Positions 1,351-64,000 of a stretch of DNA of 64,000 bases are shown here, in pieces. Below the pieces are notes generated by a model, which saw only the letters and a program-made list of their open reading frames with translations, was not told the DNA's origin and did no database searches. Source of the stretch: a virus; the IMG/VR virus record IMGVR_UViG_3300021171_000004, positions 1 through 64,000 of that record. The stretch is one strand, 5' to 3'. Numbering within the stretch: the stretch's first letter is position 1; each line of letters begins with the position of its first letter. The position numbers were made by a program, and so were the translations under genes.

Positions 1351-1877
1351 TGCTCCTTCAATTTACAGTTCAAGCCGATGATTCCATCTGGATCGTGGAT
1401 ACTCAGTTTCTCAATTGGGCCCGCGTTTCCGCTCCAGGTACGGACCCAATTTCCACCGTGCTCGAATCGGGTAAACTGATTCCACAGGGGTTCGGTGTGT
1501 ATGCGTTCGAGGGCCGCACACCTGAAACGGAAGGCCCAGGCGCAGGAATCTGTTCCGTAGGTACGTATCTGGTCGGCCTCGGAAACACCATTAAAATCTA
1601 CATCCGCACAAACGTACCTATTAAGGATTTTACTATGCCCGCTCCGATCCGTCAGATTTTGTATGAAATCCTGCCTACGGATCCTAAGCAAATCGAAAGC
1701 TCGATTCAGGAGATAGCAAATGGACAAGCAGCGGAATCATCGGGACCGCAAGAACCCCAAATCAGCCGAGAGCTACCAGAAACAGCGACACGAACAGAAC
1801 AGCCAGAGGCCGAAACAAGTGTGGAATTCCCAAGCGAAAATCTGGGAGAATCGGTAGATACGGGCGGCGAAAGTTAG
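1350..1877 (+). CDS. Hypothetical protein, acidic C-terminus
   Basis: 175 aa, TAATG coupling. Confidence 0.65.
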   Translation: MLLQFTVQADDSIWIVDTQFLNWARVSAPGTDPISTVLESGKLIPQGFGVYAFEGRTPETEGPGAGICSVGTYLVGLGNTIKIYIRTNVPIKDFTMPAPIRQILYEILPTDPKQIESSIQEIANGQAAESSGPQEPQISRELPETATRTEQPEAETSVEFPSENLGESVDTGGES

Positions 1878-1895
1878 TTCACTAAGTGAACAACC

Positions 1896-2087
1896 ATGTG
1901 GATAGAAATCCTAATCCTGCTCGCGATTGTGGTGGAAATCGGATGGTCTATTTACGTACGAAAACAGGATGCTGAGGCCCTCACGCTTTTAAAGGAAATC
2001 AAAACCATTCTGGAAGATTCTAACGCAGAATTGGCCGATATCCGCGACGAAACAGTGGAAGGAAAAGATGAGCCAACATCAAGCTAA
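1896..2087 (+). CDS. Small membrane protein with coiled coil
   Basis: N-terminal hydrophobic helix. Confidence 0.65.
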   Translation: MWIEILILLAIVVEIGWSIYVRKQDAEALTLLKEIKTILEDSNAELADIRDETVEGKDEPTSS

Positions 2088-3270
2088 AGTAGTTCGTATC
2101 ACAGAAATCCTCCCACATAAAAATGCCGACTCCCTCGGCTTAGTCGAGATCGGCGGATTCCAAGTAGTGGTGCGTCTAGAACAATTCAAAGTCGGAGATT
2201 TAGCTATTTACGTGGAACCCGATTCTATTGTGCCCGAACTTCCGCAATTCAGTTTTGTGTGGGAAAAGGATGGTGCAGGCCAGCTACGAGTATTGGTTCC
2301 AGAAGATCCAATTCCAGAAAGATATCGTCGAATTACCGTTCGAAAATTCCGAAAGGAATGGTCCGAAGGTTTACTCATGCCGATTCAGGAATTTCGAGAA
2401 ACTTTCGATGCGCAGGAAGGCGCGGACGTAGCCGAACTGTTAGGCATTACCCATTGGAACCCGCCCGAGGACCAAGAAGACCGCGAACCCAGTTCGAAGC
2501 AATCCAAGACGATGCCTCGCTCTTTTAAGGGTTGGATTTATTTCCTCAAAAACTGGGCCGTTAAGATCATCACTCTGGGCCAGTACGATCCGTGGGGTGA
2601 GTGTGGCGGCGCGAACGAAAAAGCACCCCGGAACACACCGCCAGTTTACGACGTGGAAAACTTCAAACACTACAAAGATGTTTTCAATGCCGCTGTCACC
2701 GAAGGCGATATCACCATGCCCGCAGAAACGGTGGTAGTTACCGAGAAAATCCACGGCTCGAACGGGCGCTTCCTTTTCCAAGCGGATTTGCTGGGCGGCG
2801 GGAAAATGTACGCAGGGAGTCGCAAGCTGTGGAAAAAAGCAGGCAGCACAAATATTTGGCGGAAAATTCTGTCTACGAATTCCGATATCGAAAAATGGTG
2901 TCGGGAGCATCCAGGATATGTGCTCTACGGTGAAGCGGTGCCCACACAGGGCGGATTCGAGTACGGACACACCAAAGACGCACCGCACCTGTTTTTGTTC
3001 GATATACGAACCCCAAACGGCAACTGGGTAACTTATACCGATGCCCGCGGAATGACGGGCGGATACAATATCGAATGGGCTCCTCTGCTCTATCACGGGC
3101 CGTACGATCTCGAAAAGATTTCCTCTTTGGTGGACGGAAAAACCAAGACAGGCGGAAACCATATTCGGGAGGGTGTCGTGATCCGGACGGAGCCGGAACG
3201 CCATGTGCGCGGGTTGGGTCGGGTCCAACTAAAAATTGTCTCGAATGACTACCTGAAAAAAGAACAATGA
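2068..3270 (+). CDS. ATP-dependent RNA ligase (DRB0094/Rnl2-like family)
   Basis: N-terminal PHKNADSL...GDLAIYVEPDS module, motif I TEKIHGSN, LYGE, FLFDI, REGVV, LKIVS. Confidence 0.9.
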   Translation: MSQHQAKVVRITEILPHKNADSLGLVEIGGFQVVVRLEQFKVGDLAIYVEPDSIVPELPQFSFVWEKDGAGQLRVLVPEDPIPERYRRITVRKFRKEWSEGLLMPIQEFRETFDAQEGADVAELLGITHWNPPEDQEDREPSSKQSKTMPRSFKGWIYFLKNWAVKIITLGQYDPWGECGGANEKAPRNTPPVYDVENFKHYKDVFNAAVTEGDITMPAETVVVTEKIHGSNGRFLFQADLLGGGKMYAGSRKLWKKAGSTNIWRKILSTNSDIEKWCREHPGYVLYGEAVPTQGGFEYGHTKDAPHLFLFDIRTPNGNWVTYTDARGMTGGYNIEWAPLLYHGPYDLEKISSLVDGKTKTGGNHIREGVVIRTEPERHVRGLGRVQLKIVSNDYLKKEQ

Positions 3271-3437: not shown

Positions 3438-3939
3438 TATCCTCTGGTTCGTGCGGGAAATCTTCTAGATATTTCGCGAGGCAATCCAGACAAATTTCGT
3501 CTTCTGCCAAGCCGTCTTTTTCCTGTTCACATAGTGAACAAATCAACGGTGCCTCCGGATTTCTGTGACACGGCTCGCTACGCACACCGCCGCCAGCAAG
3601 AGCATCAAGCCTAAAGCGATTAGCAGGCCAGTCACTCTGGTTTCCAGCCCGTCTTTCTTAAATATTGCCCGAGTTCGTAGAGGTACTGCTGTTCGAAATT
3701 ATATTGTTGGATTCGAACGCCGATCCATTTAAGAAGTTTGTAAATCCCATAGAAAAGAACCAACCATGGTATCACACTCATTGTTTAAACTCCTCGTCCA
3801 GACTTGGCTCTGGCCAGAATATCGTCGGGAGATCATCATCCGTCGCGTGATACGGGCATTCCTCAAGTTCTTCTAGGTTCAGAGGCGGAATGCTCCGTTT
3901 CGTGCGCTTTGGCTTATCGAATAGCGGCTCCCGTTCCAC
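3379..3939 (-). other. Operon of four small ORFs (3778-3939, 3632-3781, ~3543-3635, 3379-3546)
   Basis: Translationally coupled short ORFs downstream of promoter TTGACA-17-GAGAAT; last ORF has CxxC..CxxC. Confidence 0.55.
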
Positions 3940-4026: not shown

Positions 4027-4224
4027 GTGGGTGAGAAAGAAAATACCCAAAAGTGCGAAGTCCACAACATCCGGGACGCACGAACCAACGATCTGATTTA
4101 TCGATGCAGCCGCTGTCTTGGATGCTATGCCTGCGAACACACCGCCATCTATTTTGCGAAATGGTGGTGGCGCTGCAAGGACGGGAAATTGCGAAAAGTG
4201 ATTCGGGACGGGGGTGTGTTTTGA
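4027..4224 (+). CDS. Small Cys-rich (Zn-binding) protein
   Basis: Six Cys; GTG start 6 nt after the -10 box. Confidence 0.55.
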   Translation: MGEKENTQKCEVHNIRDARTNDLIYRCSRCLGCYACEHTAIYFAKWWWRCKDGKLRKVIRDGGVF

Positions 4225-4442
4225 TTTTGGAAGTCAAACAAGTCGAACCAAAGGTTTGGGGTTTGTACGTAAACGGAATCCTGTTCGGAACATCCAAAAG
4301 CCGATTCGATGCGGATCATGGAAAAGTAATCCTGGAAAACGCCTTCGACCGGGTAGAAAAAGGATTGGACCCGCCGAGCGTTCCGGACGCCACAGGGTTC
4401 AGTTCACAAAGTGAACAGATAACGGACATTCTAGACACATGA
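4221..4442 (+). CDS. Hypothetical protein
   Basis: TTG start overlapping the upstream stop; 3' part of the 4053-4442 ORF. Confidence 0.55.
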   Translation: MILEVKQVEPKVWGLYVNGILFGTSKSRFDADHGKVILENAFDRVEKGLDPPSVPDATGFSSQSEQITDILDT

Positions 4443-6089: not shown

Positions 6090-6169
6090 ACCGTACACAT
6101 AGTGAACAGCCGTGTCAAGCAAAATTATTGGAAATTGTTCTTGACATGCCCGAACGATTTTGGTAGGAT
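6090..6169. promoter_or_regulatory. Divergent promoters; the leftward one contains a GTTCAC-N3-GTGAAC-like site
   Basis: Minus TTGACA(6118-6113)-17-TACGGT; plus TTGACA(6141)-17-TAGGAT(6164); site at 6093-6107. Confidence 0.7.
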
Positions 6170-7515: not shown

Positions 7516-7941
7516 ATGCTCGTACTAGTCCCGTACGCTGATTTTATTGCTGTTGGTGGTGCCGCTGTCGCGGTTATTGCTCTGATTCACAGTCTAGCCA
7601 AGAAAGCCGGACCTGCGGGCGCTACTGGGCCGCAGGGGAAGCAAGGAATTCCCGGAGTCCAAGGTCCGATTGGCCCGCAGGGGCCAGCAGGAGTGGCCGG
7701 GGCGAAGGGCGACAAAGGCGATTCTGTGAAGGGTGCGGATGGGGCACCGGGTCGAGATGGGAAAGACGGGGCGTCTGTAAAAGGTGACAAGGGTGATAAA
7801 GGCGATAAAGGCGATTCTGTCAAAGGCGATAAGGGTGACTCCGTGAAGGGCGACAAAGGGGATAAAGGTGATTCCGTTGTCGGGCCCAAGGGTGATAAGG
7901 GAGACAAAGGCGATAAAGGGGACAAGGGCGATCACGCTTAA
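7516..7941 (+). CDS. Membrane-anchored collagen-like (G-X-Y) protein
   Basis: AGGAG RBS; N-terminal TM helix then GPQ/GDK triplets. Confidence 0.85.
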
Positions 7942-7979
7942 ATTTTAGTTCACAATGTGAACAAACGAAGTCCTATAGG

Positions 7980-8115
7980 TAGGATGGGGTCTTTCATATC
8001 CCCCCGTGGCCGCATAAGGGTTCTTGCTGAGAATCTTTATGGGCGCGGGGCGCTATCGAGGCCGAAAGAGAATGGTATGACTGGACAGGGCCTGAAAAAC
8101 CCTGTCCCTATCCTA
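7980..8115 (+). ncRNA. Candidate structured RNA (unknown family)
   Basis: Closing stem TAGGATGG/CTATCCTA; internal stems CATAAGGGTTCT/AGAATCTTTATG and GGACAGGG/CCCTGTCC with G-U pairs. Confidence 0.5.
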
Positions 8116-8135
8116 AAATTTTTCAGGAGAACAAA

Positions 8136-8321
8136 ATGAAAGTAAAGCGAGCGCAGAAATGGCTCCCTCAAGCACAAGTAGAAAAAGCATTTCACAAGGC
8201 GATTACATCTCTTCGAAATGTGCGCGGGTTTGTGAATCTCGAAGCCAAAGTAACTATCCGCGTTTACGATGCGACCGACCCGAACAAAGCGGTAATTTTG
8301 CAGAGCAAGCACGCGGTTTAA
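8136..8321 (+). CDS. Hypothetical protein
   Basis: AGGAG RBS. Confidence 0.65.
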   Translation: MKVKRAQKWLPQAQVEKAFHKAITSLRNVRGFVNLEAKVTIRVYDATDPNKAVILQSKHAV

Positions 8322-8795
8322 TATGACAACACGAATTCACATAGTGAACTTCGGGCCCGATAAGGTCGAAGCGAGCGTAGAATCCACTAATATTACGTCC
8401 GCGCCAGAAGTAATTTGGCCCAACCAATATAAAGATTTTTACGTTTACGACAATCACGATATCGTGGTGAAAGAAATTCCGAACTCGAAGCCTGTATGAG
8501 TCGCTACCAATATTTCTGTAGTTTATGTTCAGGTTCAGTGACCAAACCCGAAACAGGCACGAGCACATCCAAATCAACCAAAGCGGGCCTTCACGGTTGG
8601 AAATGTAGTTCGTGCGGGGCAAAAGGCGTAAAAGTGATTCGCAAAATGAACAAGGACGGTGAGTGATGCGTGGAGACATTTTAGCCAGAGGCGCGGCCAG
8701 CGCGACTTTTCCTTCGAACAGCCATATTCCCCAGGACAAATGGGACTCCATATTCGGCAAACGTCCGCTAAATATCGCGAAGCCAGAGAAGAAAA

Positions 8796-9056
8796 ATGAA
8801 ACTAAAAGAACGGCTCGCAAGCGCTCTTCAGAATAATAGTCTTCTTGGTCTGTACAGGCTGTTTGGTGGACTTAGCGAGTTCTGGGCGTTCATATTCGGA
8901 GCGGCCACTATTTATCTCGCGTTAAAAGGAAAGCTCGACGGAAATTTTGCTTTAGCTGTGACCGCGATTACAGGAATTCTTACGGCTCACGACGCTTTGG
9001 ATGATTGGCACAGCCGACACAGAAGAGACCAACAAGACCCAAATAATGCCAGTTGA
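8796..9056 (+). CDS. Putative holin (two TM helices, charged C-terminus)
   Basis: FWAFIFGAATIYLAL and FALAVTAITGILTA hydrophobic segments; near endolysin. Confidence 0.45.
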   Translation: MKLKERLASALQNNSLLGLYRLFGGLSEFWAFIFGAATIYLALKGKLDGNFALAVTAITGILTAHDALDDWHSRHRRDQQDPNNAS

Positions 9057-9855
9057 ACTGTACCATCAAATCCCGCCCGATCCCCCGGGGAGCCCTGTGA
9101 AGAATTTCTATATCGAAGCTGTCATTGTTTGCCGTGAGTACGATGATTTTTTGCGGAGTACGCTTCCGCACAATAAACAACTTTTCGACCGAGTAGTTGT
9201 GGTCACATCTCCAGAGGATAAAAAGACGCAGAAATTGTGCGAATTTTATCATGTGGAGTGTGTCCAAACTGACGCGCTCGGTACGAAGCAGAAAAAGTTT
9301 TGCAAAGGCGCGGGCGTAAACGAAGGACTTGCCCGGCTTTCGAAAAAAGGCTGGGTTTTGCATCTCGACGCCGATATCTGGTTGCCGCCACAAACCAGAA
9401 TTTTGCTCGAACAGGCCCAGTTAGACGAGAAAATGATTTATGGAATTGACCGATTCAACGTCCGTGGCTATTCCAAATGGGAAAAATTTCTAAAGCGCCC
9501 TGTTTTGCAGCACGAATGCGGGTCCTACATCCATCTCGATAATTCTTTCCCAGTAGGAACCCGAGTGATGCAAAGTCACATGCATGGGTACGTACCAATC
9601 GGTTTTTTCCAACTGTGGTGTCCCGCGGTTTCTGGAATTAACAAATATATCGAAGGCCACGCAGACGCGGGCAAGGAAGATATTCTTTTTTCATGGCAAT
9701 GGCCGCGAGCCTCGCGAGGATTCATTCCGGAAATAGTCGCCTATCATCTCGAAAGCGAGGATTCAGGTTTTGGGAAAAACTGGGCAGGCAGGAAAACTTC
9801 ACAGTTTGAGCACGTTTCCTGGATACGAAAAATTCTAAGGTGGTTCACAAAGTGA
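9046..9855 (+). CDS. Glycosyltransferase, GT-A (family 2-like)
   Basis: VIVCREYDDFL, KGAGVNEGL, WVLHLDADI (DxD), IGFFQLW, ED. Confidence 0.85.
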   Translation: MPVELYHQIPPDPPGSPVKNFYIEAVIVCREYDDFLRSTLPHNKQLFDRVVVVTSPEDKKTQKLCEFYHVECVQTDALGTKQKKFCKGAGVNEGLARLSKKGWVLHLDADIWLPPQTRILLEQAQLDEKMIYGIDRFNVRGYSKWEKFLKRPVLQHECGSYIHLDNSFPVGTRVMQSHMHGYVPIGFFQLWCPAVSGINKYIEGHADAGKEDILFSWQWPRASRGFIPEIVAYHLESEDSGFGKNWAGRKTSQFEHVSWIRKILRWFTK

Positions 9856-10298
9856 ATTTAAGTGAACGGCCCGTAAACGGGCAATTGAAACACAAAATCG
9901 GCTCTGTCGAAATAAATGTCGATAACAAGGCGGGATGGGAAGACTACGATTTCGGAATGTATCTGGGAGATTATGTTCGAACTGTTCGACAAGAGCGCGA
10001 ACAATTAATTCAAAAATGTCGCGAAGCCGGAGCAAGAATGCTCCATCCGAACGATGGGTGGGTTGGCCGCGATAATGGAAAGCCGGTCGCGCTTCGGAGT
10101 ACCTATCCAGATTTTAATGACAATCCTAAAGTGGGGGATTTAATCGCGCTTGGATTCAGCATTAAAGATATAGATTTGTTTCGCGTAGTCGCGAAGGACG
10201 GAAATACGTACGCACTAGAGTTTTTTAGTTCACTTATTGAACAACCGTCTCTCGAAACTACTTTGGATAAACTTCTGAAGATTATCAAAAGATGGTAA
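9852..10298 (+). CDS. Hypothetical protein
   Basis: GTGA-coupled ORF, HPNDGWV motif. Confidence 0.6.
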   Translation: MNLSERPVNGQLKHKIGSVEINVDNKAGWEDYDFGMYLGDYVRTVRQEREQLIQKCREAGARMLHPNDGWVGRDNGKPVALRSTYPDFNDNPKVGDLIALGFSIKDIDLFRVVAKDGNTYALEFFSSLIEQPSLETTLDKLLKIIKRW

Positions 10299-10307: not shown

Positions 10308-10604
10308 ATGGAATCGCGAATCTTGACAGAAGCCGAGATTGCGATTTGCGTGTGGAACTGTAAATCCTACGCCTATGATTTTAAAGCCATCCGTGGAAAA
10401 TGTGCGAACCCGCAATGCAAGTATCCATTGTCCGCGCTTACAGAGAATTTCTATTCGCACGAAGTAAGCGGTAAGGTTTGCGATCTCTGCCATACCATGG
10501 AAGATGCTGTTCGCCAGCAAACCGGACTCCGGGCCGCGCACGAAAATTGGAAAAAAGAACAGGAATCCAAAAAGAAGATCCTCGATAATAACAGGTACCT
10601 ATAA
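10308..10604 (+). CDS. Cys-rich hypothetical protein
   Basis: GAGGGG RBS; three Cys pairs. Confidence 0.6.
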   Translation: MESRILTEAEIAICVWNCKSYAYDFKAIRGKCANPQCKYPLSALTENFYSHEVSGKVCDLCHTMEDAVRQQTGLRAAHENWKKEQESKKKILDNNRYL

Positions 10605-10905: not shown

Positions 10906-10992
10906 GTCTCGTAACGTACGGGTACCCAGAGCGTACGAGGGGTTTCCCCCGGTTTAACCTAGGCGTGAGCCGAAAAGCCGGGTATAATCTTA

Positions 10993-11068
10993 TGGCCTGT
11001 GGTCCAACGGGCAGGACGCGAAACTGTTAATTTCGACGGTGAAGGTTCGAATCCTTCCGGGCCAGCCA
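10993..11068 (+). tRNA. trnN: tRNA-Asn (GTT)
   Basis: Acceptor TGGCCTG/CGGGCCA, anticodon arm CGAAA-CTGTTAA-TTTCG, T arm GAAGG-TTCGAAT-CCTTC, encoded CCA. Confidence 0.95.
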
Positions 11069-12367: not shown

Positions 12368-12552
12368 ACAGTCATCCCTTCTTCACGCTGTTTTTCGTAC
12401 AGACGAATGTATTCTTTTATTTTAGGCGAGAAACAAAGCATTGCGCCGAGTTGTTTTGTGGTGCCGTGCGGAACGTCTCCGAACGTTTCTGAGTATTTAA
12501 CCCAGCATTCGTGCAGAGTTTCCGCCAATCGAATTAATCCTTCGTCTTTCAT
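12364..12552 (-). CDS. Hypothetical protein, first gene of recombinase operon (probably leaderless)
   Basis: ATG 7 nt after putative -10 box. Confidence 0.55.
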   Translation of the reverse strand: MKDEGLIRLAETLHECWVKYSETFGDVPHGTTKQLGAMLCFSPKIKEYIRLYEKQREEGMTV

Positions 12553-12559
12553 ACGAAGC

Positions 12560-12588
12560 ATGTTCACATAGTGAATTAAGGTTGTCAA
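12560..12588 (-). promoter_or_regulatory. Promoter of recombinase operon overlapped by palindromic operator
   Basis: TTGACA-17-GAACAT; site GTTCACATAGTGAAT at 12562-12576. Confidence 0.65.
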
Positions 12589-12771: not shown

Positions 12772-13071
12772 ATGAGCGATTTTGGGCCCGCTTCGGGCAA
12801 CGGCCAGTTAAACGAATCTTCGCCCGCCTCGGTTGTATTTTTAGAAGTGCATACACAGGGACCTGTGACCAGCGCAATTTCTTCTGGTGTTCCGGGTGGC
12901 CTTAGCGGAAACGCTTCGGGACTCAACAATTTAGGTCCTGGCGATACCGCAGGCTCGAACTCTACCGCGTACGGGACCGTTTCAAATGGATCCGCAGTGG
13001 CTCCAGTGTTTACAAATTTTCAAAATAGTCTTGTGCCGAATGTGATGTTCCGGCTCAAGAACCCAGGATAA
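12772..13071 (+). CDS. Small G/S/T-rich putative virion protein
   Basis: AGGAG RBS; N-terminus similar to 13077 gene. Confidence 0.65.
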   Translation: MSDFGPASGNGQLNESSPASVVFLEVHTQGPVTSAISSGVPGGLSGNASGLNNLGPGDTAGSNSTAYGTVSNGSAVAPVFTNFQNSLVPNVMFRLKNPG

Positions 13072-13076: not shown

Positions 13077-13346
13077 ATGAGCGTCGATCTCGGTCCAGCT
13101 TCAAACACAGGTGTCCTGTTCGCAGGACAAACTTCTTCAATCGAAGTTCATGTGGGCAACCCTCCGTCCGTGAATCTCGGAAATATTCAAACGGGCGTCG
13201 ATCCCTTGCCGCCTTCTGCGGCTCCCTACATTGACCCGGGCCAAGTAGGAACAAATATCACGGGCAACGCAGTAGTTCCCATCAACAAAACTATCGTTTT
13301 TACGGGTGCACCAGGAACTACGCAGACTATTGCAAATCCAGCTTAA
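13077..13346 (+). CDS. Small putative virion protein
   Basis: Shares D(F/L)GPAS..G and EVH motifs with 12772 gene. Confidence 0.65.
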   Translation: MSVDLGPASNTGVLFAGQTSSIEVHVGNPPSVNLGNIQTGVDPLPPSAAPYIDPGQVGTNITGNAVVPINKTIVFTGAPGTTQTIANPA

Positions 13347-13405
13347 CGCACTTCACATTGTGAACTGCCCGATTTGAAAATTTTAGCAACAAAAAGAGAA
13401 ACACA

Positions 13406-14710: not shown

Positions 14711-15394
14711 ATGCCGTCGATCAAGAAAAGTGAATTAGAAGCGCTTCGAGCCACAGCATACCAAGAAGGAATATGGGAGAAGCGATACAACGCAGAGAAA
14801 CAGTGGAAGAATTATTATCGCGATTGGTTGTATGATTATTCGAAAGAAGCGGGCGAGGCGAAGCGAACTCTTCAAGAAAAACTTACCATCGAAAATGAAA
14901 ACGTCGGCCAACTAAAAGATTTGCTCGCCCAAGCAGAATCTCGACTCACCGAACGAAACCAAACAGTCGCCAAATTCCTCCATAACGGAATCAATCTGGC
15001 CGCGGAGCATCGTAAACAACAGCAAGTTGCAATTGATTATTGTGTGGAAGCATTCGGGTGGCGCGACAAATACATTAAACTTTTAGTCGAGCGGGACAAT
15101 TTGCGTTCCGAACTCGCCCTGCAAAAAGAAATACCAAAAATGGTCGAGCAGGTTGTTCACTATGTGAACGAGTGGAATCCAGGAACGTTTTACGCGACGA
15201 AGGAACCCGATCCAATTCCGGCGAACCCGCCACAAACAAAATCCTATGCCCGTCTCGCAGTTGCCTTACTAATTGGCGCAACGATTGGCCTGACCATCCT
15301 GTGCGCGTACGAAGCTAAGATTATTCACAATCAGCGCGAACTTATTTTGGGACTCTGGAGATTCATTCAAGCAGGATGCCCGTTTACGGGGTAA
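14711..15394 (+). CDS. Coiled-coil protein with C-terminal TM helix
   Basis: Heptad-rich; LAVALLIGATIGLTILC. Confidence 0.7.
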   Translation: MPSIKKSELEALRATAYQEGIWEKRYNAEKQWKNYYRDWLYDYSKEAGEAKRTLQEKLTIENENVGQLKDLLAQAESRLTERNQTVAKFLHNGINLAAEHRKQQQVAIDYCVEAFGWRDKYIKLLVERDNLRSELALQKEIPKMVEQVVHYVNEWNPGTFYATKEPDPIPANPPQTKSYARLAVALLIGATIGLTILCAYEAKIIHNQRELILGLWRFIQAGCPFTG

Positions 15395-18970: not shown

Positions 18971-19703
18971 ATGTCTCAAACTGATACAGTGACCGTGATA
19001 GAAGAATGGACATGCGATAGCATGATCCGATACATACCTCATGCGGATGGCACGCGCACGGTACTAGAGCAATCGAACAAACCCCGGCCATACGTGTTCT
19101 TTAGACAGTGGATAACACGCGAAGAACTAGAACGGATGTACCCCGATGAATGAGGCGATATTCGAACAAAACCCAAACGGCATAGGTGAGCCCGTACACG
19201 CCACAATCGGGAGTTATGAGAACAGAGGATCATACGTTTGGGTAGACACACCAGACGGGGAAGCACTAGCAAAAAGCTTAGAGGATGCGGGAATACCTGT
19301 TACGCGTGTCCTTTACACTCCCGCACCTCCGCTGAACGGAAGAACGCGCCTACGTTTTAAGAGAGACCATTGAGACTGCCTCGTATGAAAGCATGGGAAG
19401 TTTTGATGCAACGCGCGATAATTCAAGCTACGCGCGAGGCTATAGTCCGTCTTTGTTCACAATATGAACAGAAAAAACCGCACGTACAAACCCTAACAAG
19501 AGACAATGGGAAACCCTAACGCGGGCTCAACTAGGATCAAGCTTAGACTGGCCATCGCACGCCAAGCGCTAGCAGAACTACAGGATACCGGCTTGCTATT
19601 GAGCCCAGAGGATAGGCTAGAGAGAATGAAACTGATTGAACGCCTAACTACTGGGAAACGGACTAAGAAAGCCCATAAGCACGGCGCATTCGACAAAGAA
19701 TAG
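18971..19703 (+). other. Small rightward early ORFs (18971-19153, 19146-19373, 19385-19519, 19506-19703)
   Basis: Short overlapping ORFs downstream of the rightward promoter. Confidence 0.5.
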
Positions 19704-23254: not shown

Positions 23255-23328
23255 TTCACAATATGAACAGGAGATTCAAATGATTAAGGAGATTGCCATG
23301 ACTACAGTTCACTAGGAGGTGAATAGTC

Positions 23329-25202: not shown

Positions 25203-25252
25203 TTGACTTTCTGTTGAGTTCGTGATACGATGGTTTTGTTCACATTGTGAAC
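25203..25252 (+). promoter_or_regulatory. Promoter with perfect palindromic operator at about +1
   Basis: TTGACT-17-TACGAT then GTTCACATTGTGAAC (25238-25252). Confidence 0.7.
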
Positions 25253-25262: not shown

Positions 25263-25475
25263 ATGAAACACTTCTATAGGTCCCACGATCTTCAAGTGAA
25301 CACTCTCCCTTCGGGAACGATTTCATACGATATCTTCGACCGTTCCCGCCGCTACCTGCTCGCAGGTTTTTCATTGACCGACCGGAACGAACAAGAAGTA
25401 ATGGACCGATTGCGTACACGGGTGGACCAAATCATTTTAGATGAACCCGTACGCATGGGAATGAATGTACGATAA
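25263..25475 (+). CDS. Hypothetical protein
   Basis: GAGGG RBS downstream of the promoter. Confidence 0.6.
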   Translation: MKHFYRSHDLQVNTLPSGTISYDIFDRSRRYLLAGFSLTDRNEQEVMDRLRTRVDQIILDEPVRMGMNVR

Positions 25476-43772: not shown

Positions 43773-44185
43773 TGGTTTGTTCTTTATGTCGCAAACAACC
43801 AAGGCATAGTAAAAGTTGGTGTTTGGAATGTACTCAGAAAAAAGCGAAACAATACCAAACTACCTACCGTAAAAAACACCCTCAGTCCCACCGGGTGGAA
43901 CGTCTTAGAAAAAGCCATCTCACTCTTTCTGAATACGAAATTCTAAAGCAACATCAGAATTCCCGATGCGCTTTGTGCAGAAAGGAATACCCTATTTTTG
44001 ATATCGACCACGACCACGGACATTGTCCGTATGCTAGGGCGTGCAAGGAGTGTATTCGAGGCTTACTCTGCCGTCTGTGCAATCGATATCACCTTCCGTG
44101 GTTGGAGAAAAATCTCCATCTACAAAGCGAATTTGTTAAGAATTACCTGAAATCAAGGCCATTCTTAGAACAGTTAGCCGCCTAA
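43769..44185 (+). CDS. Endonuclease VII-like (free-standing homing endonuclease)
   Basis: QNSRCALC..IDHDH..CIRGLLCRLCN. Confidence 0.88.
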   Translation: MMVCSLCRKQPRHSKSWCLECTQKKAKQYQTTYRKKHPQSHRVERLRKSHLTLSEYEILKQHQNSRCALCRKEYPIFDIDHDHGHCPYARACKECIRGLLCRLCNRYHLPWLEKNLHLQSEFVKNYLKSRPFLEQLAA

Positions 44186-46726: not shown

Positions 46727-48052
46727 ATGCAATTCGCCTACGAACGTGCCCGAGTGGGCACCCGAGCGGCCCAGTGGATTAACCCCAAAAAAGACGAACT
46801 ACTCATCCCTGACCGGAAAACCGCCTACGCACTAATCGAGAAGTTCGACGTACAGTTACAGGCGAAACTGCCGCGGCACAAACGGGCTGAGATTTTGATT
46901 GCAAAAAGCATGATATATGAGGCTTTGGGCGATCAAAAGATGATGCAGGCCGCGGAAGAGGCTTTCAAGGTTACGAAAACCTCCACAACTGCCCACATGA
47001 TGGCGGTCGCCCATCACCACTTTGGGCGGCTCCAAGAAGCCTGTAATTTTTACACCTTAGCGTACCGTTTCCCGCACGAAGAGGGTTTTAACGTCGATCT
47101 GGCTTATACACAGGCCCTGCTATTCCAAGGCAGGTGGTCTGAGGCCCACAGGATGACGCTAGGACTGAAGAAACGGATGGTGTATGCCGCTTACCTGCCA
47201 GAATGGGACAGTCGGCCCTGTATGGCGCTCTCAATCGTTTCTGAGGGTGGTTTTGGGGACATAATTCAGTGCGGGCGGTGGATACCCATAATTCGAGAGA
47301 TGGTCGCGAACGTAACAGTCTACCTGCCGCCATATTTCTTCGAAACTGGGTTTGTGGACCTGATGCGGAAGCAAAGTTGGTGCCCAGAGGTCAAACTCCT
47401 AACCGACTGTCCGCAGAATGTTCCAGCGGTCGGCTTTTTCGACCTGCCAGCTATTTTTGATGTCCAGCCAGATAACATTCCGCCTTCCCTCAGTTTCAAG
47501 GCGGATCCCATACGGGTAGCGAAATACCGAGATATTCGTAATTCGCGATTCCCGAATGCCAACCTCCCGACCGTGGGCTTCTGTTTCGCGGCCCGCCAGC
47601 AAGAGACTCCTTTAGTGCCGGACGGGACGTACCGAGCCCTCACAGAGCAACAGGCGGAAAGAATTCTGGTTGCAGGATTCGAAAAAGTTCGCTTTGTGAA
47701 CTTGCAAAAAGATTTGAAAATCGACCAGTTCGCAGCACCGCTTATTGCCCGGCCAGAAATCAATTCTTGGGAAGATACGTGCGCGATTATCGAGAATCTA
47801 GATTTTGTGATTTCAGTGGACACCGCGGTTTTTCATCTCGCAGCCGCCATGGGGAAACCCGTGATTTTGATTTTATCGGGGGCCTCGGATTGGAAATTTG
47901 GTCTAAACGATGAGACGTGCCGCTGGTATTCAAACGTACGAATCATTCGCAACAATGGATTTGGTTTTGAAAACGCCGTCGAAAAGGTTATTCAGCTAGT
48001 CGAAAATGCCCAATTCCACAACCCAACTGTCGAAAATCACGCAATTCGCTAA
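46727..48052 (+). CDS. Second TPR + GT-B (GT9-like) glycosyltransferase
   Basis: SEGGFGDIIQCGRW, LDFVISVDTAVFHLAAAMGKP, DWKFG. Confidence 0.85.
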   Translation: MQFAYERARVGTRAAQWINPKKDELLIPDRKTAYALIEKFDVQLQAKLPRHKRAEILIAKSMIYEALGDQKMMQAAEEAFKVTKTSTTAHMMAVAHHHFGRLQEACNFYTLAYRFPHEEGFNVDLAYTQALLFQGRWSEAHRMTLGLKKRMVYAAYLPEWDSRPCMALSIVSEGGFGDIIQCGRWIPIIREMVANVTVYLPPYFFETGFVDLMRKQSWCPEVKLLTDCPQNVPAVGFFDLPAIFDVQPDNIPPSLSFKADPIRVAKYRDIRNSRFPNANLPTVGFCFAARQQETPLVPDGTYRALTEQQAERILVAGFEKVRFVNLQKDLKIDQFAAPLIARPEINSWEDTCAIIENLDFVISVDTAVFHLAAAMGKPVILILSGASDWKFGLNDETCRWYSNVRIIRNNGFGFENAVEKVIQLVENAQFHNPTVENHAIR

Positions 48053-49076
48053 GACCTTCCCAGATCTTGCTCCCATGGTTCAGACCACTGCGGGCGGTTC
48101 TTCGCTCGAACCCGCTCTCACGGTTTCGTCCGATACCATGATTGAAATGATTTCCCAGAACTTCAATTGGAAGTGGAATCGTTTTATCGTCCCGACCTTT
48201 TACACGAACGGTTTCCAACAGGATTACGCCCTGCCCGGTGTCGTGAATTTAGGCTGGCTCGAACACGGGGTTTTAATTGATATCAACAATACGGCGATTC
48301 CGAAACCAGTTTGGCCTTTAGAAGTTGTTCGCGATCTGGAATTTACTTCCACCCAGTACGGTCGGCCCGGACAAATTTGCTGGCTTCCGAATGACCAACT
48401 TTATTATGCCACATGGGGCGCTCAAAACACGGGCAATTCCACAATCGGATTGAATCCCGGTCCCAATATGGTAATCGGAACTCTTCTGGGTGTGTACGCT
48501 GCGCCGATTAATCCTATTCTTCAAGTCCAGGATGCTTTCGGAAATCTCTGGGTTGTCACGACCTTTGGGACCACAGGCGCAACCAACCCCTTCGCCACGA
48601 ACCAGAATCCTGTTTTTCCCTCCTCGAATAATCCCACCACTGTCGCAACTACTGTCACGGACGGAACCGTAGTTTGGACTGCGGTAAATCCCAAAGGCAT
48701 GGGCGTGCGCGTAAATCCAATTCCCCCGCAAACCGGAATCGTTTATCAATTTTATTTGGCTGCGCAGTACAGAGCTTTTGCGTTTTCGAACGGGCCGTTC
48801 ACACAACTCAGCCAAACCATCGAACCCATACCCGACGATTTCGCGAAATATTTCCGAGACGGATTCGTATCCATGATGTACGCGCACTCGCAGGATCCGC
48901 GGGTGCGTGCGAAATTTCAGGATATGTACAACAATTGGTTGAAGTCGCTAAATGATTTTCGAAGGCAAGCGGATCGCGAGCGCGAAAATGCCGGATTTTA
49001 CCCCAGCAGCCCGATTATACAGGGCCCAACTTTCGTAAACGCCGGGCCCGCCTACCCATTTATGCAAGGTTTCTAA
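48006..49076 (+). CDS. Putative head-tail adaptor protein
   Basis: FNWKWNR, QQDYALP, IPDDF; similar to 52452 gene. Confidence 0.6.
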   Translation: MPNSTTQLSKITQFAKTFPDLAPMVQTTAGGSSLEPALTVSSDTMIEMISQNFNWKWNRFIVPTFYTNGFQQDYALPGVVNLGWLEHGVLIDINNTAIPKPVWPLEVVRDLEFTSTQYGRPGQICWLPNDQLYYATWGAQNTGNSTIGLNPGPNMVIGTLLGVYAAPINPILQVQDAFGNLWVVTTFGTTGATNPFATNQNPVFPSSNNPTTVATTVTDGTVVWTAVNPKGMGVRVNPIPPQTGIVYQFYLAAQYRAFAFSNGPFTQLSQTIEPIPDDFAKYFRDGFVSMMYAHSQDPRVRAKFQDMYNNWLKSLNDFRRQADRERENAGFYPSSPIIQGPTFVNAGPAYPFMQGF

Positions 49077-49970
49077 TGTTGCATTTCACGATAACAAGCG
49101 CACAGGTCACGTACGTCCAGCCGCCGCCCGTGAATTCACAAAGTGAACAGATTCCGAACACTACTTTTTTAAATGTTCAGACGGTGAATTCCAGCGAATT
49201 GGATAATCCCGGCACGAACCAACCCGCGGTAGCCAGCACTTTTCCGAGGGTGGCCGATCCCTGGATCGTGAATCCGAACTTAGTCCAAGTGTTCCCAGTG
49301 AACAATCCGCCAGCGCCATGACAGAAAACATAACCATCACATCCCAGCAAGCAACCGCTCCGCAGAGTCCGACACCCGGCGCGAAAACATGGGCCCAGTT
49401 TTACGGTACGCCCGCACTAACCCGAACCGTAACGGCTTCGGTTGTCGCGAATCCCGTGAGTTCGAGCACAGCTACGATTAACATTCCGTTGGGGAATTAA
49501 TGTCCGAACTTCACACAACCATAACCGCCAGCCAAGTCAATCCGCAGCCTAGTCCGACTCCGAATCTGGCTACGAACACAGTAACACCAAATGCGAACTG
49601 GGACGCTTTTTCCAAGACGCCCGCAGTTCCCGTGGTGCCGTCTTCCACTCTGGATAATCCTGGAGTGGTTCACGCGCCTCCGGCGAGTTCTCCGAATGTC
49701 GCGCCGAGCACACACGACCCGGCTTTAATTATTACCACGGCAGATGCCCGAGCAACTTACCAATGGCCGGACGGTTCATGGCGGCAATATCCCGTAAACC
49801 AAACCGCTGAAAATCTCGCGTACGGAACAGGTCCACTCTACGCAAACGCGGGCGGGTTCGGCAGCAACAAAAATTCAGGAAGCACAGGGCCGGGGCAAAC
49901 GTACAATGCAAACTCTTTTGCGCCGGGAGTCGGCTTCGCGCTCGTGCCGAATAATAGCCCGTACAAATAG
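49076..49970 (+). other. Three related small P/T/N-rich virion genes (49076-49321, 49318-49500, 49500-49970)
   Basis: Shared N-terminal TIT(S/A)xQ; SPTP in the last two and SSxLDNPG in the first and last. Confidence 0.6.
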
Positions 49971-50383: not shown

Positions 50384-50422
50384 TACTCCCTCCTGTTTTC
50401 ATGTTCACATATTGAACAAACT

Positions 50423-50794
50423 ATGTCAAGCACTATTTTAACCAGCACCCAAAAAACTCTCCAGAGCGCCGAAAACCTTATTCCTTTGCCCGCTACAGGC
50501 CCAACCGCTCAGGTTTTTTCGCAAGGCGATTCCGTAACACAACTTCAGACCGTAACCAGTTCGGTGATTCAAACTTCGAATTCCGTTTCCGTCACGGACG
50601 GCACCACAGCGGATTCCACGGCTACCTACATTGGCTCGAACGGCGGAACGCCGATGTTTGCGATAAAAAATCCGAACGGAACCGCGCCACCGAATCTGAA
50701 TAATCCCTTAGCCGCGCCCGCAATTCCCGGATTGACGCCGCAGGGTTTCAACGATAACGGAACGATTTCACAGGGGTTAATTGGGAAACTATGA
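50423..50794 (+). CDS. S/T-rich putative virion protein
   Basis: Composition and gene context. Confidence 0.55.
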   Translation: MSSTILTSTQKTLQSAENLIPLPATGPTAQVFSQGDSVTQLQTVTSSVIQTSNSVSVTDGTTADSTATYIGSNGGTPMFAIKNPNGTAPPNLNNPLAAPAIPGLTPQGFNDNGTISQGLIGKL

Positions 50795-57616: not shown

Positions 57617-58477
57617 TCAATCTTCCTCGGCATCGGGGTTCTTATCGGCTCCGAAATTCCAGTTCTCTTCGTCGTCCCGGTATTCATAACCATCCTCCTC
57701 TGGATTGTATAGCAAAGTTGGTTGCTCAACGAAAATCGGCACTCGGTAGGTTCGCAGAAAATCTAGCGTATCGGGACTGATTTCTCGGGCATAATTTCTG
57801 GTTAGATAGAATCGCTTCGGGTAGGCATACTGGGCACGCCAGCCTTGGTCGCCGCGAACATAACGGCCCCAACCATAAACCTGTCCGTAGATTCCCTTAT
57901 ATGTGGCACTGATAACTTCATCTAGGGTATCTTTAGCGTAGATTCCGCAGGAGCAGAATTCGGCGGGAACATTGTGTACAGGTGGGGCAGGAAGGATTCC
58001 CGCAGGATCAAAAACAGACGCTCGCCCCAGCGTGTTTCCCTCGGCTTTTCCGCAGTACGCGACCATCGGAATTCCAGGTCGCAAAAGATGCTTTTCATCG
58101 TCGTCGAAGAAGCTATTTTGCGAACGCAGGGCCATCTTTTTCAAATCTAATTTCCACGCTCGCCAGCCAACTAAGGCTTCCATCATGTTGGTTTCGAATG
58201 GTTCGGAATCAGGTTTGTGTTCTCGCAAGGGCGGGGGAGAAAAGATTGAGTGGTTAAATTTGTAACTTACCCAACCGGCGACGATATGAGCGTTCACGGG
58301 TTGAGTAAACTGAGCCTTCAGTGATTCTACCATCTCTTTTGGATAATAGATTACGTCCCCCGTCATTTTGGTGTCTGGTTCTTTCATCTCCATCAAATCG
58401 GGTAAAGGTTCTTTGGATGGCGGGATACCGAATTCCGCACGAATCCGGTCGCTTAGTTTTTTAAGATTCTCAAACAT
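57617..58477 (-). CDS. Conserved phage hypothetical protein (antisense accessory gene)
   Basis: LVGWRAW, CSCGIYA, GWGR..GWRAQYAYP; ATG 6 nt after putative -10 box. Confidence 0.7.
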   Translation of the reverse strand: MFENLKKLSDRIRAEFGIPPSKEPLPDLMEMKEPDTKMTGDVIYYPKEMVESLKAQFTQPVNAHIVAGWVSYKFNHSIFSPPPLREHKPDSEPFETNMMEALVGWRAWKLDLKKMALRSQNSFFDDDEKHLLRPGIPMVAYCGKAEGNTLGRASVFDPAGILPAPPVHNVPAEFCSCGIYAKDTLDEVISATYKGIYGQVYGWGRYVRGDQGWRAQYAYPKRFYLTRNYAREISPDTLDFLRTYRVPIFVEQPTLLYNPEEDGYEYRDDEENWNFGADKNPDAEED

Positions 58478-58519
58478 GGAGATATGTTCACATACGGAAC
58501 GGAGTTTGTCAAGCCCAAA

Positions 58520-60465: not shown

Positions 60466-60839
60466 TTTATGTCCGCAAAGTGAACAAAACCGATCCAGAA
60501 GGCCGAATCGCAGAAGAGTGGCTCGCGAACGACCCAGAACATCAAAAACTAGGTATCACGCCCGAACAAATCTGGGACGGAGAAGTCGCCCTTATTTATG
60601 ACGAAGATGGACCAATTTACGCAATTCGTTTCCAAAAAGCCCTGCGGGTCGCCGTGCAATTCAATCCCCGAACCAAACTCAGAAACGCGAGAGCAGGTAA
60701 GGAAGTTGCTGAGTGGCTCCAAGGTTTGGCAAGGAACTCCAATTGTTCTGAAGTCATTGTGCGGGCAGGCGGTCGAGCCGCGAAATTCGTAAAGCGTCTC
60801 GGATTTTCGGATTTTGTAGGACAGTACCTAAAGGCATAA
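60462..60839 (+). CDS. GNAT-like virion-associated protein
   Basis: Paralog of previous gene; FVKRLGF. Confidence 0.6.
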   Translation: MIYVRKVNKTDPEGRIAEEWLANDPEHQKLGITPEQIWDGEVALIYDEDGPIYAIRFQKALRVAVQFNPRTKLRNARAGKEVAEWLQGLARNSNCSEVIVRAGGRAAKFVKRLGFSDFVGQYLKA

Positions 60840-60842
60840 AAT

Positions 60843-61532: not shown

Positions 61533-61539
61533 GGCAAAT

Positions 61540-61953
61540 GACATGATTCGATACGAGGGGTTAGTTTTGGCGCTTGGGAAAATGAACGGATGTTTCGATG
61601 ACCCGGAATCGCACGCATTCAAACTGCGTAATCCGCTTCTTCTCAAAACTTACCGTCCGGAAAAGAAATGTGATTCAGACCACTACAGAATTTTTTCAAG
61701 TGTGATGGGCGGGTTTAAAGCCGGAATCGCAGACATGGTTGCAAAATGTTCGGGTAAAAATAACCGTCTGAGTGCAGAAAACGTACTCAAGGATTTGCTG
61801 TCCATATATGGATTCAACCACGAAGTTTCTACGCGCAAAATCGTACTTTTTCTCAGACGCGCACTCGACGACGAAGAGATTTCGCTAAACACAAAACTCA
61901 CTTATTTTCAGGAATCGCCCGTAGAGGAACCAAACGATGGCAACCGACCCTAA
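61540..61953 (+). CDS. Hypothetical protein
   Basis: 3' part of 61489 ORF (MIRYEG...); start position approximate. Confidence 0.55.
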   Translation, partial: DMIRYEGLVLALGKMNGCFDDPESHAFKLRNPLLLKTYRPEKKCDSDHYRIFSSVMGGFKAGIADMVAKCSGKNNRLSAENVLKDLLSIYGFNHEVSTRKIVLFLRRALDDEEISLNTKLTYFQESPVEEPNDGNRP

Positions 61954-64000
61954 CGCCGTAACCGCAACGAGTCCGAATATGGACCAAACTCAGATTCCGG
62001 CGAGTACGCAACTCCAGCCTCCCGCTCCGGGTCCGACCGCTCCAGCATCTATTCCCGCGCAAGCGGCAACCCCACCGTCTCCCGGAAGTTCTTTCCGGCA
62101 CCTAGCCCCGGCTATGATTGGTTCGATTCTGGGCTCGCTCGCAGGCACGCCAACTCCGAGTTATTCCGTGGACGAATCCGGAAAAATGGTAGCCACGCCT
62201 GCGGCTCCGCTCACAACTACCCAAAAAATAAAAGCCATCGCCGCGAACGCACTCATCGGACTGTCCGCTCCGGCTCCCGAAAAAGAAAAAAGCGGACTCG
62301 CGAACGCTCTCGCAGGCGTGGGTGCGGGTGCCAAAGCCGTTCAGGAAAAAAATCTGCAACAGGATACCCTAAAGCGTGCGCAAGCGCAGGAAAATTTCGA
62401 GACGCAACAGCAAACTACGCTGCGAAAATATCAGGTTGCGCACCAAAACGCCCTCACGATGTCCACTTATTTCGCGAACAAAAAACTCGCGAACGAAATG
62501 GACCCCCATTACAAACAGAACGAGAGTCTTTTCAACGCAGTTCAGGCTTCGCCGGAATTGGGTGCCCACGCACACGAACTTTCCGATTCACAAGTTGAAC
62601 AAGAAGTGAAAAAAGACCCCACTTTTTGGGCTACGCACATAATCAAGCCTCTCGGATGGGCTCCGGAAACCGACGCGAACGGACAGCAGGTTATGGTGGA
62701 CGGCCAGCCGAAATTCTACATGCGAATGGCTGTGATTGACGGTACGCAAGATGGAAAAATCAAGGTTACTCCGGAAATGGCCGAGGATTTCCAGAAATAC
62801 GGACCAATGGCGCGAATCCCGAACGCGGATTCCATCAAAGCCGGAGACGAGTACGAACTCACCTCTCTTTTACCTGCGATGAATCGCGTGGAAGAACAGC
62901 GAAAAGCGGTTTTGGATGGGTGGGCTAAGGCAGAATTGGGGTGGTCAACCGACCCGAAAGATCCGACGAAGGAAAATCCTGTTTTGATTAATCGCGTTTT
63001 GCCGCCCGGGTCGCCAGATGCGGTGAAGCCATTGGGTCCTGTGACTCCGCTCCCGCTAAAACAAGAAGAAGGAAAAACCGAACTCCAGAAGGCGCAGGCT
63101 GCGGAAGCGGATGCCAAAGCGAAAGAGGCGCTCGCGAACGCCGCGTTGATTTCGGGAAATATCGGAAACGGCGGGCAAGCTGCGATTCCAGCCTATCTGG
63201 ATGCCATCGGAAAACTGCCCGAGTCCTCTCAAGCTATTTTGCGAAATGTGCCTCCGATGCAGCAAGCGGCTCTTTTAAAAGTCGCGAACGGGGATGCTGA
63301 CATAAATAAGATTTTTCCTACCCGCACTACGAAGGGTTCAGGACAGTTAGACGCGGCCCATGCTGCTACTCTCACATCCCTGCTTAACCCGCGGTGGACG
63401 GAAGGATTGTATAACACGAAACAATCCGCTCAAAAGTCTTTCGCAGACGGGGAAGACGGAAAAGCCATCGCTTCGTTCGGTCAATTTCTTGTCCACGCAG
63501 ATGACGTGAGGATGGGTTCGGACAGATTGCAGCGCACGAATAGCCCATGGTTCAACGAACCCATTAATACAATAAAATCCAAAGGCATGGGCAACCCCGG
63601 CGTTCCCGGACTTATGGCCGATATTTTTGCTGCCCGTAGTGAATGGCAGAATTTCATCAAAAACGGGCACGCTTCGGACCTAGCAGACAGCGAGCAAGGC
63701 CGACAAATTATGAGTGATTCCTCCTCCCCTGCGCAAATTATGCGGGCGCTTCAGGAAATGGGAAAACAAGCGGTCGGGCGTCTCGACCAAATCGACGGAA
63801 AATGGCGCAGAACGTGGGGTGGACATTATCCCGGACTCATCACGGATTCCGCTCGAACCGCTGCGAACAATCTTGGTTTGGGGGATTATATCAAACAATA
63901 CCCGTCCGAAAGTGGGGCTATGTTTGGAGTTCAGCCCAACAGCGAACAAATCCAATCTCCAGATAATCCCGCCCAGCGTCCTGCGGGTGCAACAGGCATT
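61937..64000 (+). CDS. Large internal virion / DNA transfer protein (3' truncated)
   Basis: GAGGA RBS, ATG 61937 (MATDPNAV...), frame appears open to window end. Confidence 0.7.
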   Translation, partial: MATDPNAVTATSPNMDQTQIPASTQLQPPAPGPTAPASIPAQAATPPSPGSSFRHLAPAMIGSILGSLAGTPTPSYSVDESGKMVATPAAPLTTTQKIKAIAANALIGLSAPAPEKEKSGLANALAGVGAGAKAVQEKNLQQDTLKRAQAQENFETQQQTTLRKYQVAHQNALTMSTYFANKKLANEMDPHYKQNESLFNAVQASPELGAHAHELSDSQVEQEVKKDPTFWATHIIKPLGWAPETDANGQQVMVDGQPKFYMRMAVIDGTQDGKIKVTPEMAEDFQKYGPMARIPNADSIKAGDEYELTSLLPAMNRVEEQRKAVLDGWAKAELGWSTDPKDPTKENPVLINRVLPPGSPDAVKPLGPVTPLPLKQEEGKTELQKAQAAEADAKAKEALANAALISGNIGNGGQAAIPAYLDAIGKLPESSQAILRNVPPMQQAALLKVANGDADINKIFPTRTTKGSGQLDAAHAATLTSLLNPRWTEGLYNTKQSAQKSFADGEDGKAIASFGQFLVHADDVRMGSDRLQRTNSPWFNEPINTIKSKGMGNPGVPGLMADIFAARSEWQNFIKNGHASDLADSEQGRQIMSDSSSPAQIMRALQEMGKQAVGRLDQIDGKWRRTWGGHYPGLITDSARTAANNLGLGDYIKQYPSESGAMFGVQPNSEQIQSPDNPAQRPAGATGI

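Follow-up and report, generated by a model that had tools for sequence, protein, structure and literature searches.

What are dozens of near-identical 15-bp palindromes doing in the genome of an uncultured tailed phage from soil? The question is raised by the first 64,000 nucleotides (the window) of IMG/VR virus record IMGVR_UViG_3300021171_000004, a 95,523-bp phage record (G000; G+C 49%, estimated to be 97% complete), over which copies of GTTCAC-W3-GTGAAC (W, A or T) are scattered. A first reading of the letters alone, hereafter the original prediction, had proposed that one dimeric protein binds these copies to silence or organise the genome. Following it up computationally, we find that the part of this proposal which concerns a symmetric DNA-binding protein is supported as the best reading, on the joint evidence of reading frames, relatives, mismatches and four promoters, whereas silencing and roadblocking would follow by analogy with better-known systems. 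We consider it an evenly balanced call that the palindrome constitutes the operators and roadblock sites of a clade-specific homodimeric regulator acting on duplex DNA, a regulator most likely encoded by this phage clade.

Within the window, 7 perfect copies are found where dinucleotide-preserving shuffles predict 0.01, and 20 copies with at most one mismatch (7 perfect plus 13) where they predict 0.12; none of the 100 shuffles approached the observed copy numbers, in line with the near-zero chance expectation claimed at the outset. The seven perfect and 12 one-mismatch copies of the original prediction all lie where it had placed them (Table 1), an additional one-mismatch copy at 47687 had been overlooked, and the seven two-mismatch copies it listed are present together with four more (10795, 14498, 40874 and 49175). 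It was also right that the central three nucleotides are exclusively A or T, which is true for all 20 best copies in the window. Over the whole 95.5-kb genome we count 14 perfect and 22 one-mismatch copies, and a position weight matrix retrieves 48 sites against 0.55 expected. For a codon-aware null, codons were shuffled within genes while intergenic DNA was left unchanged: whole-codon shuffling leaves about 10 copies, close to the 11 intergenic ones, and synonymous-codon shuffling about 13.5 of 36. Because these shuffles remove the rest, amino-acid sequence and codon usage account for at most 2-3 of the approximately 25 coding copies, and the enrichment, at about 150-fold or higher over both the dinucleotide and the codon-aware nulls, survives a codon-aware background. 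Sites occur at a density of one per 2-3 kb, and a regular spacing can be rejected, as the coefficient of variation of the gaps between them (0.8-1.0) is near that of random placement.

The palindrome is kept in relatives of the phage. Among isolates, the nearest is Tunturiibacter phage Tunturi 3 (portal identity 37%), a podovirus (97.6 kb) of tundra-soil Acidobacteriota whose growth is lytic yet which has recombinase genes (PMC11924767), and a scan of genome contigs for the portal returned distant relatives only, in a Bryobacteraceae metagenome-assembled genome (MAG) and a Sulfotelmatobacter MAG. Because the host of Tunturi 3 and the MAGs with portal relatives are all Acidobacteriota, the host of G000 is probably an acidobacterium as well. 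Closer relatives are IMG/VR contigs, including G001 (94,368 bp, portal identity 73%, syntenic but permuted), in which we find 21 copies with at most one mismatch against 0 for a reversed control pattern, and 37 sites by weight matrix. Similarly, 21 short soil-metagenome contigs that code for one conserved gene of the clade hold 31 copies in 69 kb, so that the motif is conserved in both sets of relatives searched. About 11 G000 positions have a G001 counterpart at the corresponding gene or gene boundary, within flanks that, at about 29% identity, are unalignable. Farther away, Tunturi 3 has one copy in its entire genome, and the two MAGs with related phage contigs show a 2-3-fold excess over control that lacks A/T spacers and amounts to no real enrichment. 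A perfect copy with an A/T spacer was found in none of 401 Acidobacteriota genomes, an IMG/VR scan with one variant of the motif yielded only chance singletons outside the known relatives, and a literature search for the motif returned nothing relevant. Its presence in G001 and the soil contigs, together with its absence from distant relatives and from the 401 genomes scanned, marks the motif as specific to one phage clade. Separately, one contig of the Sulfotelmatobacter MAG (G006:C6, L022) carries a repeat of about 500 bp twice (at 4037 and 4542), with a longer palindrome around the 15-bp core in each, which is probably an unrelated host repeat.

The placement of the copies relative to genes indicates at which level selection acts. 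Coding copies use both stop-free frames, in which they read as 14 S-x-S-E-Q-type and 8 V-H-x-V-N-type peptides; as two frames and two different peptides are involved, it is DNA or RNA rather than peptide that is under selection, and a peptide-level repeat can be dismissed on the same grounds. Ten of 23 coding copies map to the terminal 15% at either end of the protein, the tails of SSB and Erf among them, and the protein ends that host copies are the regions of least sequence constraint. On a gene map that gives priority to open reading frames (ORFs) conserved in G001, 57% of 35 strong sites are no farther than 50 nt from where a gene begins or ends (random positions 22%, p<0.0005) and the intergenic share is 31% (random positions 11.5%, p=0.0015), with the copies at 1877, 13351, 23254, 25238 and 50403 occupying almost the whole gap between a stop and the next start. 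The original claim that copies in promoters, at stop codons and in different frames within coding sequences betray selection at the DNA level thus agrees with the frames, the shuffles and the unalignable flanks alike.

The phage has recognisable sigma-70-type promoters starting with C-TTGACA, and four leftward ones (6118, 12588, 50429 and 58512) share the same order of elements, namely a -35 hexamer, a gap of 5-6 nt and then the motif, which covers about -23 to -9. At three of the four, the distal half-site followed by AT doubles as GAACAT, a TG-extended -10 at a distance of exactly 17 bp to the -35. The spacer between -35 and -10 is free of sequence requirements on the part of RNA polymerase, and the left half-site at the four promoters, though inside this spacer, still matches the consensus at 4-6 of 6 positions. 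In these promoters the motif stands in the classic position of a repressor operator. In two of these promoters (12551-12561 and 58477-58484) an ATG follows only 6-7 nt past the -10, which suggests leaderless transcripts. Neither a sigma factor nor an RNA polymerase signature was found in the genome, and the host polymerase therefore presumably transcribes all of it.

The anatomy of the site bears on whether it is read as duplex DNA or as RNA. Among 58 distinct single-mismatch copies, 42 have the mismatch on the outermost or innermost base pair, leaving a nearly invariant TTCA-N5-TGAA core, and mismatches are spread symmetrically over both halves of the palindrome. A hairpin in polycistronic transcripts, serving as processing site, stability element or translational operator, would be compatible with the folding of perfect copies into a 6-bp stem with a 3-nt loop at -5.9 to -7.0 kcal/mol, with the position of many copies in precisely the interval that separates a stop codon from the following start or Shine-Dalgarno sequence, and with a mild strand bias of flanks and loop. 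In such a hairpin, however, single mismatches that preserve G-U pairing in the sense RNA should be in excess, and they are not: 14 do so, 15 belong to the mirror class that allows pairing in the antisense RNA only, and the remaining 29, half of the total, break the stem. The near-equality of the first two classes points to recognition of duplex DNA by a symmetric protein and against a sense-strand hairpin. It is, moreover, the sequence of the stem that is conserved and not merely its pairing; the distance to the start codon varies from about -65 to +43; no T-run or U-tract was found in the motif flanks and no Rfam family matches the motif; and the four promoter copies, being upstream of the predicted leftward transcripts, cannot act as RNA in them. 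Altogether, we judge an RNA element quite improbable.

The spacer is consistent with duplex recognition too. It prefers A-W-W in G000 and T-N-A in G001, and an A/T-rich centre fits a non-contacted, deformable spacer that a dimer bends or narrows; the spacers of the 434 and P22 operators are of this kind, deformable and not contacted. A variant with left half GTCCGC and an intact right half recurs at 32818, 35659 and 60471, in each case near a gene boundary, and may represent a second affinity class or a site for a second partner.

A dimer is the best reading because the site is palindromic, occurs in two frames, is kept within unalignable flanks and shows no strand bias in its mismatches. Under this model, one homodimeric sequence-specific protein would recognise the palindrome on double-stranded DNA. 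Judging from the geometry, its binding at -23 to -9 of the four leftward promoters would exclude host RNA polymerase and block initiation, and by analogy, copies at gene junctions or in first and last codons within the long rightward operons may be roadblocks to elongation or local silencers, the combined effect being that a single protein could shut down or time expression across much of the genome.

Several observations weigh against this operator and roadblock model. First, no regulator is recognisable: HTH_3, Peptidase_S24, Sigma70_r4, ParB_N, HTH_17 and LexA_DNA_bind have no match in the whole genome, with control genomes matching each of them, and Pfam or PHROGs searches with about 50 G000 proteins returned no regulator. 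The absence of an obvious helix-turn-helix (HTH) repressor, originally stated for the window, consequently holds for the entire genome. Second, about 40% of the strong sites are deep within genes, where a regulatory role is not obvious. Third, many positions turn over between relatives; the copy at 1877, for example, precedes a small gene, whereas in G001 the copy is found some 120 nt into the ortholog. Fourth, a perfect palindrome alone cannot distinguish duplex recognition from an RNA hairpin, and the motif is followed by a mild strand bias, A and then a purine, which a purely symmetric site does not predict and which arises in part because a Shine-Dalgarno sequence often comes next.

Which protein might be the binder? 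Searches of ESM Atlas and of sequences in the PDB gave no recognisable regulator. One lead is the gene of a 226-aa protein outside the window (genome 91369-92049), which carries the motif both in codons 7-11 and in its last codons. G001 and 13 of the 21 soil contigs share the 5' copy, 2 further contigs have a two-mismatch copy at the same place, and the 3' copy is found in 6 soil contigs; 2 soil contigs retain the S-Q-S-E peptide by means of a different serine codon that breaks the palindrome. In an AlphaFold (AF2) model of the protein with a mean predicted local distance difference test score (pLDDT) of 80.7, the best fold matches of residues 39-153 are the DNA-binding domains of KorB, ParB, Spo0J, SopB and P1 ParB (Z 4.0-5.7 over 89-105 aligned residues), where, for a helical protein, Z scores under 8 can arise from a widespread arrangement of helices. 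Foldseek returned rows of the KorB/ParB type, none significant, and ESM Atlas a weak 'ParB HTH' lead; profile comparison by hhalign with acidobacterial ParB gave a probability of 0.2%, and none of 21 members of the family has a Pfam match. The distribution of the family is ambivalent: the complete genome of Tunturi 3, with its single site, has no homolog, which fits a link to the motif, and a 50.7-kb phage-like contig (G006:C120) misfits it, since the homolog there is accompanied by neither an enriched palindrome nor a site at the gene start. We regard the 226-aa protein as an unlikely candidate for the binder, and as a lead only. The fullest version of the model, in which a lytic, non-temperate podovirus of Acidobacteria would use genome-wide operators and roadblocks through a dimeric regulator of an undescribed family, possibly the 226-aa protein with its remote ParB/KorB-like domain and no CTPase, while selection on the sites shapes protein tails (S-Q-S-E-Q and S-H-S-E-Q in SSB, Erf and others), is in its entirety rather improbable.

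The binder could instead be supplied by the host, as a global transcription factor or a LexA-like or nucleoid protein that couples phage expression to the state of the cell, which would explain why no phage regulator is recognised. In Acidobacterium capsulatum and alphaproteobacteria, the LexA box has been described as a direct GTTC-N7-GTTC repeat. We compared the palindrome with the upstream regions of 30 Acidobacteriota lexA genes (L050, from G030, is included; the conclusion is independent of it). In the commonest putative box, TTCGCC or TTCACC is repeated directly at 11-bp intervals between -35 and -10, so that both the TTC-purine-C half-site and its place in the promoter spacer resemble those of the phage operators. 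These lexA promoters (L026-L052) display at least four putative types of LexA box in all, the commonest being TTCGCC-N5-TTCGCC. The phage half-sites, however, are inverted and 9 bp apart, the palindrome is absent from all 30 lexA upstream regions, and no regulon of such sites is seen in the 401 Acidobacteriota genomes scanned above or, given the marginal excess, in the two MAGs; the palindrome is accordingly distinct from the LexA boxes of these 30 loci. In addition, the different spacer preferences of G000 and G001 are those expected of a co-evolving phage protein. A host binder is for these reasons distinctly improbable.

Sites of this kind might also serve for loading or anchoring a ParB-, KorB- or Noc-like protein in genome condensation, segregation, replication or packaging. 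Relative to a parS half-site, the present one is shorter by one base, the 226-aa gene with its KorB/ParB-type fold matches is bracketed by conserved sites, and the turnover of positions at steady density with near-random spacing would suit such a role. Yet no ParB N-terminal domain (PF02195) was found in G000 at E up to 1, with control genomes again matching; the negligible ParB profile score and the homolog on the palindrome-poor contig G006:C120 count against it as well, and the bias to gene boundaries and the overlap with promoters indicate transcription. We place this reading, too, at a clearly low probability.

Weaker than these is the view that the copies are activator sites or belong to middle or late promoters specific to the phage, which redirect host RNA polymerase. 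The nearest isolate is lytic (PMC11924767), and one site per 2-3 kb, enriched directly upstream of gene starts, is reminiscent of promoter classes in large lytic phages. Apart from the four leftward promoters, however, no -10 or -35 was found at a fixed distance from the sites, which speaks against an activator site or a general promoter element, and those four already have a consensus -35 and, in three cases, a TG-extended -10. Several copies leave no space for a transcription start and leader, as they fall within the first codons or stop 1-5 nt short of an ATG; a large share are deep in genes, and the genome shows no sigma factor or polymerase gene of its own, so that we hold this reading to be very improbable.

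The remaining candidates can be dismissed briefly. Tyrosine-recombinase core sites need a spacer longer than 3 bp, which removes the small recombinase encoded at 11375, suggested originally as a possible binder, from consideration, and 36 recombination sites would scramble the genome. Promoters of the N4 virion polymerase are hairpins that resemble a 6-bp stem with a 3-nt loop, but a phage RNA polymerase or N4-type promoters are rejected, as the ORFs yield no polymerase metal-binding signature beyond one chance pattern match in an AAA protein, no giant ORF exists and the sites are spread beyond an early region. A restriction or modification site (CAC-N3-GTG within the motif) should be avoided, and the motif is enriched.

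The genome around these sites is that of a tailed phage, with genes for a large terminase and an SU10-type portal, a family A DNA polymerase and a primase-helicase, as well as RNA ligase, RecA, Erf, SSB, ThyX and a UvrD-type helicase. Nearly all conserved genes are on the + strand. The gene of the small, integrase-like tyrosine recombinase adjoins a tRNA-Asn gene (10993-11068), directly upstream of which a consensus -10 (TATAAT) is found at 10975-10990. Both contig ends (window 1-200 and genome 95420-95523) fall in an array made up of tandem copies (about 20 seen) of the 15-bp unit GTGCGGACCTAGGCG and its variants, and this array may code for a pentapeptide repeat; the assembly broke within it, which makes a circular or circularly permuted genome probable. 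A 26-kb relative (G004; L164, L165) is classed as a provirus in IMG/VR, a class we find unsupported, as no host flank was detected on it and the whole contig is syntenic phage DNA of even G+C throughout.

Further features of the window deserve mention beside the sites collected in Table 1. Small Gly/Ser/Thr/Asn-rich proteins encoded at 12772-13071, 13077-13346, 23934-24281, 24843-25058 and 49076-49321, and also present in G001, resemble one paralogous family with conserved C-terminal ends of the (F/W)-(R/K)-N-P-A/G type. Three related HNH/endonuclease VII genes (30688-31188, 37346-37738 and 43769-44185) are inserted in the packaging and head module, and all three match one single gene of G001. 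Finally, the segment at 7963-8135, directly 3' of the copy at 7948, is the best-conserved non-coding-looking DNA common to G000 and G001, with its first 50 or so nucleotides nearly identical, and has no Rfam match.

Table 1. Copies of the palindrome and motif-bearing promoters in the window (strand given for promoters; mismatches relative to GTTCAC-W3-GTGAAC)
Position	Strand	Class	Context
1877-1891		perfect	fills the 18-nt gap from the stop of gene 1350-1877 to the ATG at 1896
3525-3539		perfect	region of small, uncertain ORFs
4402-4416		perfect	C-terminal tail of conserved gene 4053-4442 (S-Q-S-E-Q); next ATG 22 nt on; G001 ortholog has a motif copy
6090-6118	-	one mismatch	sigma-70-type promoter of gene 6053-5034: -35 6118-6113, 5-nt gap, copy 6107-6093 overlaps the -10
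7948-7962		perfect	7 nt past the stop of gene 7516-7941; position common to G001
8335-8349		one mismatch	14 nt past the stop of conserved gene 8136-8321; weaker copy 18 nt past the stop of the G001 ortholog
9843-9857		one mismatch	includes the TGA stop of gene 9001-9855
10228-10242		one mismatch	about 65 nt upstream of conserved gene 10308-10604
12560-12588	-	one mismatch	promoter of the integrase-like operon: -35 12588-12583, 6-nt gap, copy 12576-12562; distal half-site plus AT forms the TG-extended -10 at 12565-12560
13351-13365		one mismatch	between the stop of gene 13077-13346 (5 nt away) and the ATG at 13406 (41 nt away)
15155-15169		perfect	deep within ORF 14711-15394 (V-H-Y-V-N)
19455-19469		one mismatch	between two leftward ORFs
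23254-23268		one mismatch	begins on the last stop base of gene 22685-23254; Shine-Dalgarno sequence next
25238-25252		perfect	ATG of conserved gene 25263-25475 11 nt on; copy directly downstream of a promoter-like hexamer pair
30264-30278		one mismatch	45 nt past the stop of gene 29626-30219; precedes the terminase module
32818-32832		two mismatches	left half GTCCGC; variant repeated at 35659-35673 and 60471-60485
39295-39309		one mismatch	within the portal gene (V-H-K-L-N); present in every relative, where conservation of the protein alone may account for it
40709-40723		perfect	740-nt gap upstream of the capsid genes
47687-47701		one mismatch	within gene 46727-48052
49134-49148		one mismatch	within gene 49076-49321 (S-Q-S-E-Q)
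50401-50429	-	one mismatch	promoter of gene 50383-49973: -35 50429-50424, 6-nt gap, copy 50417-50403, TG-extended -10 50406-50401; copy also 5 nt before the rightward ATG at 50423
58484-58512	-	two mismatches	promoter of like geometry: -35 58512-58507, copy 58500-58486, -10 58489-58484

How does this network compare with dispersed operators described elsewhere? The principle is already known, and what is new is its extension to a phage group whose regulation is unstudied: how phages that infect Acidobacteriota, a phylum dominant in soil, regulate their genes has hardly been explored, and the present genome offers a testable regulatory code composed of one 15-bp site in about 40 copies, four promoters with fixed operator geometry and clade-wide occurrence. 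As none of the common domain families searched for is present, the binder, once found, would probably represent a new phage family of DNA-binding regulators.

One functional parallel is with the stoperators of cluster A mycobacteriophages. Repressor sites of L5 (bound by gp71) and TipsytheTRex occur in more than 20 copies, in promoters and very short intergenic gaps of genomes transcribed by host RNA polymerase, and the repressor has been proposed to block both initiation and elongation (PMC9283540, PMC6550527). The L5 sites are asymmetric, 13-14 bp long, and bound in one active orientation by a monomer with two DNA-binding domains (PMC9283540, PMC6550527). The 36-48 dispersed sites described here, four of them at promoters and 57% near gene boundaries, are similar in number and placement. 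Unlike stoperators, they are 15-17-bp palindromes that imply a symmetric dimer, many copies are within genes, and no HTH repressor is recognised. The core has no orientation, and its flank shows a mild bias, A and then a purine on the sense side. The analogy drawn in the original prediction therefore fits in number and placement and fails for the asymmetric, monomer-bound site. On the temperate lifestyle that it implies, the evidence is mixed: a tyrosine recombinase is present, HTH_3, HTH_17 and S24 domains were not found in the genome, the provirus class of G004 is unsupported, and the nearest isolate is lytic.

Another parallel is with the conserved inverted repeats (CIRs) of Streptomyces phage phiC31, which are reportedly palindromes of about 17 bp bound by products of the repressor gene c. 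They share with the present sites a palindromic operator in many highly conserved copies across a phage genome, including intergenic ones; phiC31, in contrast, is temperate with a known repressor, its copies are fewer and intergenic, and their sequence is unrelated. Phage P1 likewise has dispersed C1 operators, to which the network bears a functional resemblance.

Among plasmids, the KorA and KorB operators of RK2 are palindromes of 12-14 bp that lie around the replicon, in promoters or far from them, and KorB, the dimeric global repressor of this IncP plasmid, is a sliding clamp with a ParB-type CTPase domain (PMC11790492). Dispersed palindromes and the weak fold matches of the 226-aa candidate to KorB/ParB domains recall this system; unlike it, the phage shows no CTPase domain, its operators differ in sequence and spacing, and homology at the sequence level is absent. 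With parS the site shares an inverted repeat of very similar half-sites, but those of parS abut, have one extra T and occur as a few copies near the origin, whereas here they are 3 A/T bp apart, number 36-48 and are accompanied by no ParB gene, so that this analogy of the original prediction also falls away.

The network thus belongs to none of the L5 stoperator, phiC31, KorB, parS or LexA-box families, although it would work like the first three. Identifying its binder would tell if control by roadblocks at dispersed sites, so far a feature mainly of mycobacteriophages, is more widespread among phages.

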